Positions 57,409 to 63,803 of a DNA stretch of 64,000 nt are shown here, in pieces. The notes beneath the pieces are model-generated. The model saw only the letters and a list, made by a program, of their open reading frames with translations. It had not been told where the DNA came from and searched no databases. Within the stretch, counting starts at the first letter, position 1, and every line of letters starts with the position of its first letter. The position numbers and the translations under genes are program-made. Origin of the DNA: Bigelowiella natans CCMP2755 (lineage: Eukaryota; Protista; Cercozoa); assembly GCA_000320545.1 (NCBI GenBank), contig ADNK01001700.1:21683-85682 (forward strand), in the 5' to 3' direction.

Positions 57409-60400
57409 TCAATGTTGTTTTTTGCCGTTCAACATCTCTCTCTTCTTCTTTATCGAATCAAAAATATTGACACTTCTTTCTACTACTACTACTACTACTG
57501 CTACTACTACTAATACTAATACTACTAGCAGTAGTACTACTACTATTACTATTACGATGCTCTGACCTTTTCTCGGTAACAAAGATATAGAGCCGTCTTT
57601 GTTATTCAATCTGGTGTAGTAGTTGTAGAAATATCATTTGTTTAGAATTCATAAGGATTAGAGAGCTGATACTACTCGATCATCAACACGGCATCCTCCC
57701 CTGACTCTCTAGCATTTGCATAAGTCACTCATGACCACACCAAGCTTCCTACTACTACTACCTACTACTACTACTACTACTACTACTACTACTATAACAG
57801 CAACAACCAATTAGTCACAATACCGATAAATCTCCCCAATGAGAAGCGTAGCGATAGCAATCCAGCCCACCGTTGGAGACAGCAATGCCCCTGATATGGA
57901 ACAATAAGTTTGTCACACGCTTTGCCAATATGACGATGGTGATAGCGAGTTGGTGGGATGATGATGATGATGATACGGGAGAGAGAGAGAGAGAGAGAGA
58001 GAGAGAGAGAGAGGAGAAGAAGAGGTTTATTCTTTCAAATGATAAACAACAACTCATACAAACGGTGATGGTGTATCAAGATAAGCAAATCATCGTCATC
58101 GTCATCGTCATGGTCATGATCACCTGCCAAAGGATGGGTGAGGTAGTAGGTATACGCAACAGCCGCTGCTGATCCCAAGACCTGAAGGATTAATTGATGA
58201 TTGATTGGTGGAATGACAATAATAAGAAGAACAGCAGCGAACGACACGTGCTACCAGAGCACAACTCAACATGACAATTTGCTTGTGGTTTATCCGCCAA
58301 TAACATTGTTTTCACAGCTTTCACCCTATTTCTCTCCTCGTAGATCCCCTTAATACAGTTGTTGCAATTAATCGTTGTTGTTGTTGTTGTTGTTGTTGTT
58401 GTTGTTGTTTTCACGAAATAGAAAACTTCAAAAACATTCTCGCTTTGAGCCGTATCGGTTTGTTTCCGTCGGATTCCTCATGGGAACAGGTTTTCAACTT
58501 CTTTCCCCTCCCAATGATGACATCGGTAATCTACACGGCAGATCACCATCATATCAATTTCTTCTTACCGCGAGGACTCCTAATAGCGCAGTGCCCATTC
58601 GTTTCTCCACATTATTGATGGTGTTCCAGGTGTCCCCAATACTGAAAGGGGGAGGGGGGTGAAGGGGGAGAGTTTTCCCAAATATGGATATATGAATGTT
58701 AAAATGATATATGCACAAAAACGTATTATAAGTAATACAATTCTATGTGTAGGTGTATGCATGTGTTTTATTATCCCTTGGCATCACGTGTGTGCATCAT
58801 CTGCATAGGTACAAACTACAGAACACTTTTGACTAATGTGCTCCGATGTTGTCTTCGTAATGCTCTCAGTCAGTTAGTCAGTCAGTCATGCTTGTTGTCC
58901 TAATACTACTACTTCTACTACTACTACCTCAAATGAGCGACCATGGCGAGAAGCGGGACGGAGAAGAATTTCTAAAGTTTTCCATAACAAACTATTAACA
59001 ATATGCTTCAAGCACACACACACGCACACACACACAATTTTCCATTTCGGGCGTGCATATGTTTAGCCTCGCAGCATCAATCTATCAGCATCGGAACATA
59101 ACTACTACTACTATTACACCGCCCCAGTAACGACTGCTTTTGGTTGGCTTGCATAGTTGGTTGACTAGTACCAACCTCTCCTGAAGCAACATAGGCTATG
59201 GTTGTCGATAGAGCTCTCAAGACCTACCGATGAGGATGATAATCAACTTTCATCGTATACACAAATAAATATTACTACAAAGTAGATCTACTCTCTGTCC
59301 CCCCACCCCCGTTGTCGCTCACTTACCGCAACACCAGACCACACAATTGGGAAGGTAAGAGGAGGAGGGGTCCACCATGGCTTCTTTCTCTGCTCACAAC
59401 AAAGGGGGGGGGGGGGGGACTAAATAAAGAGCGGTAACACGAGCACGGCATGATGGTGAGCAGTTAAATAAGATTAAGAATTGCTTCTTAAAACTGAAAC
59501 GTCGTAGGCAGGTCACAGCATCGATATAGCAGCTCCAATTTATGATTATAGCCGGCTCTCTCTTTCTGTTGTTGAATTACCAAAACAGTGCAGTACAAAC
59601 TACTACTACTACTATTACTACTACCTGGAAAACGGGGTCATGCTTGTTGGGCTTTGGCCTTGAGTTGTCCATTATCGAGAACATGCGGCTACGAAGGGAG
59701 AGGAACCCGAACAGCACTGAATAATAATACAACAACAACAACAACAACAACAACAATCATGACGATGTCAATAATGGTAATTATCATAATAACAATAATA
59801 ATAATTATAAAGTAATAATGATCACGATGATGATGATGATGATGATGATGATGATGAGGAAAATTGAAAACGTCTCTGTATGCACACCATCATCAACGAG
59901 TGAATCTAGTTTAACGACGCCCTGCTACACAATATATCTCCCAATAACTGACATGCGACGAATCGTGTAGAAATGTCCGCCTGATAGTAGGCAACGACGT
60001 AGTCCAAGCCGTATAGAAAGCTATCCGTAATGCAGTTTAAAAAGGGGAGGGCGAGGGGGAGGGTTCATGACATGGTTTAGAATAAAAGTATTTCTGGATC
60101 AATGACATATATACATGCCCTTCTTTCACCCCTCCCCCCCCTATACCCCCCTATATCGACTACTGAAGATTCACTGGGGGGTTAGGCCGCAATTTGGGGA
60201 TGCAGAGTCAATTTATTTGATGTTAAAGGACGTGCGCGTTGTCGTTCTTATCACCTCGCCAACAGTCCAAACTGCACGCTTGTGGCACTTACGTAGCGAA
60301 CAAGCGCTCCCTAACAACAATAAGACAACAATAACAACAACAATGATAATGATGATGATGATGAAATCGAAGATGTACGCAGCCATTCAAAAAGCAGTGA

Positions 60401-60577
60401 GTGTGTGTGTGTGTGTGTGTGTGTGTGTGTGAAGGAGGAGAAGAAGGAGAGAGAGAGCTTGATCATAACAATACGTAACGACATAGTCGATGAAGACACC
60501 AGCAATATGAGAGAGAGAGAGATACTCACCCAATCAATGCCTGGCTTCTGTCCTGGAACTGTCGCTGGTGCTCGAGC
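57409..60577 (-). CDS. Algal-type TspO/MBR family membrane domain (multi-exon); probably the 3' half of a TPI-TspO fusion
   Basis: Phase-consistent exon chain: PGIDW|GALVRYVSATSVQFGLLAS|FLYGLD...|LLFGFLSLRSRMFSIMDNSRP...|RKKPWWTPPPLTFPIVWSGVA|VLRALST...|FSVPLLAMVAHLS|IGDTWNTINNVEKRMGTALLGVLA|VLGSAAAVAYTYYLTHPLAG|ALLSPTVGWIAIATLLIGEIYR|LN. Contains the TspO KPxWxPP...F..VW and terminal IxRLN motifs. Confidence 0.85.
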
Positions 60578-60913: not shown

Positions 60914-63803
60914 CTTATCGACCCTGCTTGATTTGAGCTTAAGACTCGTATCAACAATATTCAGGAAGGATGAGGCCTTTAAGGAAGCTCCTCCAACCTT
61001 AGTTTATCAGTTTTTCACGACACAATATAAGACATAATAGCATATATGAATAAAATACATATTATTATGTGGAAAGGAAGAGAATTTATGTAGAGTGCTG
61101 TCGTTGCATGTTGGCACACGATCATTATGCTGCAGGACTGCCAATGTTGTGCTGCTGCAGAATGGTTTCCTCCTCGACCAACATTTATGGTTTTTTGAGC
61201 ACGGAAATTGAGGGAGAGGGAGGAGGGGGAGGGGGCGGAGTTTGGGTGTATAGGGGAGGATGAAGTTCCTGAATCATCGTGCTAATTATTATTGATCATT
61301 ATTATTATTATTAGTAGTAGTAGTAGTAGCAGCAGTAGTAGTAGTGGTAATACTGCTTTCTCGAGGGAGGTGATTGAGCTTATTATCGATCGAAGCGATG
61401 ATGATACTTACCAAAAAACCGTCAATATCGGTTTGGCCTTTCAATTCCTTTGCGTTTTCTGGATTGACAGAGCCTGGGGGAAGGAATAAAGGAGCAATCT
61501 TATTAGCAACAATACCCACTAGTAGACAACATTAGAATGTTAGGGAAAAGGAGAGGGGGGAGAGTGAGGAGGAGGAGGAGGAGGAGTAGGAAAGCAAGAG
61601 AGCTGATTATCTGGTTATTAAAATGCGTTTCTACCTCCGTACACAATCCTAATGTTATCTGCCATCTGGAGAAGGGGAGGTGAGGAGTAATAAGAAGATG
61701 TCATTTCTCTTGAAGGACGATAAGTGTGTTATAGTGACGATGTGACTGTCCAACACAGAAATACTCGCCACTACCCCATTAGAGACGATGAATCCCATGT
61801 AGCATGTGATCATTAAATAAAAATCATGCGATTTACCAAATAGCTACTACTTACTACTACTACTGCTATTACTACTACTATTAAGTCGTCTTCTTCTTCT
61901 TCTTCTTCTTCTTCTTCTCACTCACCTCCTGGCCGACTGCATTCGAAACCCATTTACGGATGTATGAGTGGACATCCTGTGACGGTTATGAGGGTGGTTC
62001 TCATTGTTGTTGTTGTTGTTGTTGTTGTTGGCATGCATGCAAGCAACAAACCAAACAGCAAAGCACGGAACGAGAGAGAGCCGCAAACAACGCAAAGGAT
62101 AGAAGGGGAGGGAGAAAGAGAGAGAGAGAGAGAGAGAGAGAGAGAGAGAGAGAGGAGGAGGAGGGGTGGGGGGGTTGTCCTACTCAAAAAGGGTTTGTTT
62201 CACAGCAGCAGTGTAAATGCTGATATCACCATTACCTGTGCCTGGTCAGGTGTTGCTGTCTTGCCCGTTCCAATCGCCCAAACTGGTTCATATGCTATAA
62301 CCTGCATTTTGTTCCATCGCTATCAGCAGCATCCTCTCATTTCCTTTATCATTTCTAGAGCTCTAAGCATCATCATCATCGTCATCATCATCACACTAAC
62401 GAGTCTCTCTGCTATGTGAGCGGTAATATGTTACGATGTTCTCAAAGCTCTTCGAGGGGACACGCGTAGCGACGGAGAGGAGTTGGCGCGTAATGACCTG
62501 CAAGAAGTACCAAGGAAAGTCGAAGATCGTTTGACGTGGCCATACTCTACACCGTCATTGGCACTATCTTCCACATAAACAATCATCATCACCATCCTCT
62601 CTCTCTATTTATTCCGTGCTGGTCTCACCGATAAGGTCTTGCCGCTCTCACGTTCCTCTAGCGTCTCTCCGACACATAAGACGACCTAGTCAACGGAGTG
62701 ATGTTATGTAAAACAATCGCAAACTGTCACCTTCATACCCTCATCTTACTATCATCATCATCATCATCATCATCATTATTATTTCCAATCGGCAAACTAC
62801 CTTCAGCCCCGCTTTCAAAGCTTGCACTGTTTTCATCGCAATGGTATCATCGGACTCTACGAATGGGAGGGGGGGGGGGGGGGGGAGAAGGAGGGGAATG
62901 GAGAAGAGGAGTGACATAGTAAGTAAGGAGGGTAATCGTGTCGCTCCTTGTGATAATAGGCTATTGACTAAACAAAAACCTTTGAGTTCTGGAAGATGCC
63001 TTCGCTCAGAATGTCCAAGAATAACCCAATTCACGCCAACGTCTTTAAGCATATCAGCTGTGTACTCTCCGGTATAAGCCCCTTTACGAAGAGAACGTTG
63101 AACGTAGTGGTGGTGGTAGTAGTAGTAGTAGTAGTAATAGCAGTTAGTAGGATGAAAGAAAGAAAGACGATGACAACAACAAAATCAGAAACATTCATTC
63201 AGCGAATACACACATCGATACCGGACTTATTATACATCGCAAACTTGCATGAAATAGCGATGATAGAGACAAATCATATTCTATGCAATCACTATAAACA
63301 AACGCACGAGCAGGAGGGAAAAGGCTTCTGGATCTGCTAATATTCGCTGCTCTTCATACATGCATGCATGCATGATAGTGAAAGTAGAAAGACCGCCATT
63401 ACATCTTACACCTACCGTTTGTAGAGAGCCAGACATTCTGAGCACCAATGTCGATGTCTTTTCTTAGCAATGAACGAGTCCAGTCCAAGTAGGGCACAGG
63501 TGGAGAACATACCACCTGGAAGGAAGGGAGGATGGAGAGAGTCAACGAAGTGAAAATATTTTGCAAGAATATCTCAAATCTCCTAAGCAATTTCCTTCGT
63601 TCACGCCGCTCAAAGAGTAGGAGGTAAAACAGAAAAAGAACAATGCTCTCATTCATTAGTAAATCATCGATAGATGCCAGCACCCACCTCAACATCGTCC
63701 TTAACAGCATTGCGAACGCTGTTTAAGTTGTTGATGAGAGCGCCGAGTTCCTTGAATCCCCGTTGCATTTCCAATTTCCACCAATCCACATGGTCCGTGT
63801 ATG
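60914..63803 (-). CDS. TPI: Triosephosphate isomerase (multi-exon, 5' end probably outside the window; one apparent frameshift at ~63758-63761)
   Basis: [92 protein letters not shown]. Catalytic Lys, His and Glu are intact. Confidence 0.95.

Follow-up and report, generated by a model that had tools for sequence, protein, structure and literature searches.

PPAP4 of Amorphochlora amoebiformis, a fusion of triosephosphate isomerase (TPI) with TSPO found at the pyrenoid rim, is the closest described system to the gene reported here (Moromizato et al., 2024; PMC10927497). According to the text of that paper, PPAP4 was located at the pyrenoid periphery by green fluorescent protein (GFP) and immunogold labelling and ranked fourth by spectra in the pyrenoid proteome. 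Its leader directs GFP to the stroma, six helices are predicted, its TPI half is close to plastid TPIs and was judged apparently inactive owing to divergence, and its orthologues are given as restricted to chlorarachniophytes. In the literature searched, no other paper was found on PPAP4 and the pyrenoid or on TPI-TSPO, and in passages of a 2026 review (PMC13655443) TSPO is not mentioned. We analysed a 64,000-nucleotide stretch of the genome of Bigelowiella natans CCMP2755 (contig ADNK01001700.1; hereafter the window), whose minus strand carries a TPI-TspO fusion gene. A preliminary description of this DNA, made from the sequence alone, had proposed the fusion; it was already in print as PPAP4, and the addition made here is, judging by the sequence, a catalytically intact form that the text of PMC10927497 does not describe.

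The window gene shares with PPAP4 the order TPI, linker and long algal TspO (after a leader that is putative in the window gene), the same C-terminus and six predicted helices, and the TspO halves are 55% identical and fall in one tree group. In contrast, three features of the window copy, the NWK motif, the catalytic Glu and lid loop 6, are missing from the TPI half of PPAP4, which is only 30% identical to that of the window. The TPI-GAPDH fusions of stramenopiles and cercozoans resemble the window gene in having TPI as the N-terminal half and in being organelle-targeted, but they have another partner, are mitochondrial and soluble (PMC3527533), and in the TPI tree made here they form a separate clade. 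On the unfused side, the nearest TPI is a stand-alone plastid-type enzyme of Lotharella globosa (P0086 cluster), 58-59% identical and with the same active site, which unlike the fusion stops after the barrel, is soluble and sits on a shorter branch. Stand-alone long algal TspO/MBR proteins (for example P0002 and P0005; PF03073) share their N-terminal helices with the window protein at 44-50% identity.

A single transcript across the junction

The window gene is one spliced TPI-TspO fusion, and a model of 23 exons fits RNA-derived contigs from two studies to the base, which bears out the fused transcript that the preliminary description had proposed. Four runs were aligned to positions 56500-64000, and two of these, X1 and X2, one from each study, were taken as RNA from their spliced joints and poly(A), none of the runs carrying this sequence being registered as RNA among the indexed rows; the evidence consists of assembled contigs, not reads, in which rare variants are dropped. 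Contig 8 of X2 (2,058 nt at one depth of 357.7) holds both ends of the fusion: exon 63803-63684 occupies contig positions 300-420, and the 3' exon starts at 1751. The spliced model, in which all introns are GT-AG, predicts this 3' exon at exactly 1751, whereas with the gap between the two halves kept it would lie at 2087. Besides, contig 1 of X1 runs into poly(A) at 56859 and extends 747 nt upstream of 57201, compared with the predicted 746 nt (the last TPI exon and all TspO exons) plus one shared G, and the break in the X1 graph lies at a low-depth form retaining the intron before the last TPI exon. The depth bins match the exonic nucleotides (47 covered against 48 exonic in bin 60516-60766 for both X1 and X2, and 83 against 84 in bin 60767-61017 for X2), so none of the fusion gap is covered by RNA. 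Joints were seen directly for 14 of the 22 introns; introns 7 and 8 are bridged across exon 8, and introns 4, 11, 12, 14, 15 and 22 are not displayed as joints, the splicing of the fusion intron (intron 11) being read from contig coordinates and depth.

The splice sites named in the preliminary description were verified in the sequence: the last TPI exon (60997-60914, minus strand) ends at a phase-0 AAG/GTAGTG donor (60914/60913), and 336 nt further a phase-0 AAG acceptor (60578/60577) starts the exon 60577-60530 (minus strand). That exon had been described as opening the TspO chain, and it is indeed joined in frame, but it consists mostly of linker and not of TspO proper. The gap had also been called intron-like and rich in microsatellites, and both its length (336 nt; the 22 introns of the gene span 103-414 nt, with a median of 233.5) and its simple-repeat share (0.28, against 0-0.29 in the other introns) agree with this. 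Unspliced read-through stops after five codons, again as described. Published genome values given in the text of PMC12730881 are 45% GC and 184-nt introns for B. natans, where simple repeats are largely absent, and 27% and 546 nt for A. amoebiformis. The window, with a GC content of 44.1%, is closer to B. natans in both GC and intron size, although its introns do contain simple repeats. Orthology and the nearest named TPI would likewise point to a chlorarachniophyte host.

An independent TspO start at the in-frame ATG at 60652, inside the fusion intron, was considered and rejected, since RNA covers neither this ATG nor the gap; neither appears in any contig, and poly(A) was seen only at 56859. 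Production of a soluble TPI through intron retention found no backing, as no retained form of the fusion intron was seen in the X1 and X2 contigs, which drop rare variants. Low-depth contigs (about 5-37, against 334-419 for spliced ones) do cover parts of introns 10 (60998-61411), 2 (63082-63415) and 22 (57203-57566), a sign that introns are sometimes retained or that the runs contain a little DNA.

Between the window edge and the stop, the reading frame stays open over 499 aa once one unknown base is placed at a frameshift in the first TPI exon seen. This base, near 63751, is absent from the window and present in both RNA contigs; the likeliest cause of its absence is an assembly error within a short run of A, which would break automatic gene models. 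At the other end, the gene end formerly placed at 57409 proved to come from reading on into the last intron; the gene in fact finishes with exon 57202-56859 (minus strand), which has its stop at 57155-57153. The RNA also shows two short TspO exons (59223-59176 and 58971-58928). The transcript in X2 extends 299 nt upstream of 63803, beyond the window edge; the first exon seen starts at an AG acceptor, and the start codon and leader exon or exons lie upstream. Of the two further runs, X20 yielded unspliced pieces at low depth, none of which reaches the frameshift site. For X21, a sample of about 6 in 100 raw reads (155 of 178 alignments partial) piles up at 56751-57252, while the bins near the end of TPI have no depth. 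This pile is compatible with one 3' end, and it was not counted as evidence.

Relatives carrying the same fusion

The TIM+TspO_MBR architecture, which the preliminary description had suggested seeking elsewhere, was found in three further fused clusters. A search with one TspO exon returned two matches among four candidates, the better being P0001, a 599-aa TIM+TspO protein that is 65% identical to the window model along 498 aa, the junction being free of gaps (TIM E 2.7e-88; TspO_MBR E 5.2e-16, 59.1 bits against a cut-off of 24). The TspO half of P0001 in turn gave 61 matches among 7,997 scored candidates, with the fused clusters P0001 and P0003, both from JGI/IMG, and P0004, from A. amoebiformis (NCBI GAB5362082.1); no further fusion occurred among the best 150 of 22,653 matches in a 50%-representative library. 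P0004 also has a transcript copy and is backed by genome, transcript and proteome, and the sequence listed for PPAP4 in PMC10927497 begins like P0063 and P0004. Among the matches listed, which are not a full census, 7 of 354 sequences match both halves, namely the window model, P0001, P0003 and four A. amoebiformis records. Additionally, a 197-aa TspO fragment, P0269, is 57% identical to the TspO half of the window and has the same kind of C-terminus, and it may be a piece of a fifth fusion.

Identity among the fused copies reaches 62-67% in the TPI half of the three intact ones (window, P0001 and P0003) and 55-71% in the TspO half of all four, and drops to 7-30% in the linker. Both trees are quick trees without bootstrap and with a midpoint root only. 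In the TspO tree the 4 fused rows of 56 form one group (Shimodaira-Hasegawa approximate likelihood-ratio test, SH-aLRT, 99). In the TPI tree, which holds 115 of 116 rows because the TPI half of P0004 was too decayed for the filter, the 3 fused rows again form one group (99), nested in a 16-row group (99) with the L. globosa stand-alone TPI and euglenid plastid TPIs. Descent from the TPI-GAPDH fusions was rejected, since the TPI half falls among stand-alone TPIs of plastid type and outside a 28-row TPI-GAPDH clade, and by these phylogenies the TPI-GAPDH fusions are an independent event. Both halves of the window gene are, as judged from the trees, orthologous to PPAP4 and its relatives. The simplest reading of these data is a single fusion of a duplicated plastid TPI to a long algal TspO, with later decay in A. 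amoebiformis.

Conservation of the TPI active site and predicted topology

The TPI literature assigns active-site roles to the NWK Asn and Lys, the HSE His and Glu, the catalytic Glu, lid loop 6 and the YGGS and GGAS loops of the TIM barrel (PF00121), all of which are present in the TPI half of the window. Every one of the 14 active-site columns checked, lid loop 6 included, is kept in the window, P0001 and P0003, in contrast with PPAP4/P0004, where 2 of the 14 remain (the alignment at one of these two is doubtful) and the catalytic Glu and the lid loop are gone. The TPI half of the window is thus likely to be a working enzyme, as far as sequence can tell. At the position of the catalytic His, the A. 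amoebiformis genome record has His and the transcript record has Arg (P0004 and P0063), a difference that would reflect either two alleles or the loss of constraint.

For P0001, the AlphaFold model (alignment of 42 rows; mean predicted local distance difference test, pLDDT, 70.7; predicted template modelling score 0.49) shows a leader in disorder, a TPI barrel predicted with mixed confidence, a low-confidence linker (residues 353-369 under pLDDT 50) and a TspO half of six helices, mostly at 81-98 pLDDT. Its input consisted of fusions and TspO rows, and the TPI half is therefore shallow and partly of low confidence; a mixed alignment of TPI-only and TspO-only sequences misaligned and was dropped. 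The model nevertheless matches TPI structures (E 3e-18; template modelling score 0.74 by target), and its last four helices match residues about 30-151 of solved TspOs (E 1.3e-10; 8e7x and 4uc3). Solved TspOs have five helices; unlike those of the Rhodobacter type, the TspO half of the window has six predicted helices and is preceded by TPI. The TspO motifs W-x-PP / FP-x-x-W and the conserved Trp residues of PF03073 are present in window exons 16, 19 and 21. Moreover, 22 Lys and Arg residues lie on the side that carries the linker, the long loop and the C-tail, compared with 1 opposite, a bias that fits a topology in which TPI and the ligand loop of TspO face the stroma. By inspection, the leaders of P0001 and P0004 show a hydrophobic start followed by a Ser/Thr-rich, basic stretch.

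Gene structure and other genes in the window

The exons and the fusion intron are collected in Table 1. Among nine exon pieces, five gave a Pfam match (TIM, and weakly TspO_MBR).

Table 1. Exons and fusion intron of the TPI-TspO gene, in window positions
Feature	Position	Strand	Evidence
Exon 1, first seen; TPI start, NWK motif; AG acceptor at start	63688..63803	-	RNA contigs, model
Exon 2, TPI	63416..63515	-	RNA joints, model
Exon 3, TPI; GHSE motif with catalytic His and Glu	62980..63081	-	RNA, model; Pfam TIM E 5e-11
Exon 4, TPI	62801..62856	-	RNA contigs, model
Exon 5, TPI	62629..62685	-	RNA contigs, model
Exon 6, TPI	62435..62497	-	RNA contigs, model
Exon 7, TPI; catalytic Glu and lid loop 6	62236..62301	-	RNA, model; Pfam TIM E 1.3e-9
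Exon 8, TPI	61926..61976	-	No direct alignment; contig coordinates of both runs require its 51 nt
Exon 9, TPI; YGGS loop start	61635..61665	-	RNA contigs, model
Exon 10, TPI	61412..61473	-	RNA contigs, model; Pfam scan
Exon 11, last TPI exon (GGAS loop) and first linker half	60914..60997	-	RNA contigs, model
Fusion intron, 336 nt, GT-AG, phase 0, microsatellite-rich; unused in-frame ATG at 60652	60578..60913	-	RNA contigs, model, depth bins
Exon 12, second linker half and conserved Trp starting the membrane domain	60530..60577	-	RNA, model, P0001 alignment
Exon 13, TspO; predicted helix 1	60255..60310	-	RNA, model; AlphaFold
Exon 14, TspO	59953..60020	-	RNA contigs, model
Exon 15, TspO; predicted helix 2 and long basic loop	59625..59716	-	Model, homologue search, depth bins
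Exon 16, TspO; W-x-PP / FP-x-x-W motif	59327..59389	-	RNA, model; Pfam TspO_MBR E 0.003
Exon 17, TspO	59176..59223	-	RNA joints, model
Exon 18, TspO	58928..58971	-	RNA joints, model
Exon 19, TspO; GDTW motif	58569..58641	-	RNA contigs, model; alignment
Exon 20, TspO	58124..58181	-	RNA contigs, model
Exon 21, TspO; last predicted helix	57824..57890	-	RNA contigs, model
Exon 22; preliminary description ran past its donor to a stop at 57409	57567..57610	-	RNA contigs, model
Exon 23, C-terminal tail, stop 57155-57153, 3' untranslated region, poly(A) 56859	56859..57202	-	RNA, model; C-terminus aligns to P0001 end

Downstream of the fusion lies an intron-split gene (53227-54900, minus strand) that looks glycosyltransferase-like by eye. 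A 745-aa open frame at 46317-48554 (minus strand) has matches to two Myb/SANT repeats and BRCT-like matches, and is reminiscent of telomere- or damage-linked Myb proteins. The 1,659-aa open frame at 33981-38960 (plus strand) matches protease, reverse transcriptase, RNase H and integrase zinc-finger domains and is, by these matches, a long terminal repeat retrotransposon polyprotein. Other frames on the plus strand encode an EML-type WD40 beta-propeller (6128-7606) and an AMP-binding enzyme (43793-45067).

Discussion

A membrane-tethered TPI, as supposed in the preliminary description, is the best reading of the fusion. With a probability of about two in three, we consider that one nuclear gene, orthologous to PPAP4, encodes a likely active TPI anchored to the innermost plastid membrane on its stromal side, with the pyrenoid rim as the probable site. 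Conserved domains and an intact active site in copies 62-67% identical make selection on catalysis or substrate binding hard to avoid. From the 299 nt of upstream transcript and from the leaders of P0001 and PPAP4 we infer a signal-plus-transit leader of up to about 100 aa. The protein would be imported to the stroma and inserted in the innermost membrane at the pyrenoid rim; this location has been demonstrated for PPAP4 only and is extended to the window protein by orthology. With six membrane helices, the TPI barrel would face the stroma together with the C-tail and the ligand loop of TspO. The TspO half may anchor the enzyme, and the anchored TPI would interconvert glyceraldehyde 3-phosphate and dihydroxyacetone phosphate beside the output of Rubisco, under the polysaccharide capping vesicle. 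Control of the anchored TPI by porphyrin is a conjecture, and the link to porphyrin or stress sensing put forward in the preliminary description would be no more than that.

Several observations weigh against an anchored, active enzyme. The leader of the window gene lies outside the sequence seen, and that of P0003 is 45 aa long without a clear hydrophobic start, although it may be incomplete. Stand-alone plastid-type TPI exists in L. globosa, and several TPIs per species are reported in the text of PMC10927497. Among the rows listed in the pyrenoid proteome of the same paper, the terms triose, translocator and phosphate trans gave 0 matches to a triose-phosphate translocator, and since none is named there, direct channelling to export is weakened. 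In the quick tree the fused TPI path from the shared node is 0.65-0.88, against 0.29 for the L. globosa stand-alone enzyme (2.2-3.0 times longer), and this longer path may reflect relaxed constraint. Lastly, PPAP4 occurs in abundance at the pyrenoid rim although its TPI half has decayed, and at least one lineage can therefore dispense with catalysis.

In a different view, the TPI half is mainly structural, serving dimerisation or contact with the pyrenoid matrix, while the TspO membrane domain is what is selected and catalysis is lost lineage by lineage. PPAP4 retains part of the barrel with 2 of 14 active-site columns and yet ranks fourth in the listed pyrenoid proteome, fused TPIs lie on a longer branch, and a separate plastid-type TPI is available. 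However, a mainly structural role sits poorly with three copies that are only 62-67% identical to one another and nevertheless have all 14 columns complete, lid loop 6 among them, and we regard it as unlikely, although it deserves serious consideration.

A polyprotein, with its linker cut after import to release a soluble stromal TPI and a separate TspO, seems improbable to us. The linker is indeed poorly conserved (7-30%), rich in Lys and Arg and modelled with low confidence (353-369 under pLDDT 50), but it holds no conserved cleavage motif, and peptides of both PPAP4 halves are listed for the isolated pyrenoid fraction (table of PMC10927497). Two adjacent genes joined by an assembly or read-through artefact are scarcely credible and largely refuted: the fusion joint is not directly displayed, contigs stand in for reads and an in-frame ATG lies at 60652, but this ATG is without RNA, in two studies the fused model agrees with the contig coordinates to the base, the sequence common to donor and acceptor is just 7 nt long against an assembly word of 31 letters, and the same fusion recurs in three other protein clusters, one of them with genome, transcript and proteome backing.

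Returning to the anchored and likely active TPI, the usual form of the family is probably, as far as its sequences indicate, an active enzyme held in the inner plastid membrane and facing the stroma, with the studied copy being the decayed one. The published remark on an inactive TPI half, made in the text of PMC10927497, probably holds for one species only, because three of the four distinct fused sequences keep an intact active site. Whether orthologues keep the active site is not stated in that text, and its Fig. S5 could show this indirectly. A wider proposal, which we put forward as a speculation of doubtful standing, is that chlorarachniophytes ancestrally joined an active enzyme of the Calvin cycle and export to a porphyrin-binding membrane domain at the pyrenoid rim; isomerisation would then take place where fixed carbon leaves toward the storage cap and would be tuned by tetrapyrrole or redox state, and the only copy studied so far would be a decayed exception. 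Overall, the window gene and PPAP4 would provide a natural pair of active and dead forms of one of the most abundant pyrenoid proteins of chlorarachniophytes, and this pair would allow a simple assay of whether a step of the Calvin cycle is tethered to the pyrenoid rim.

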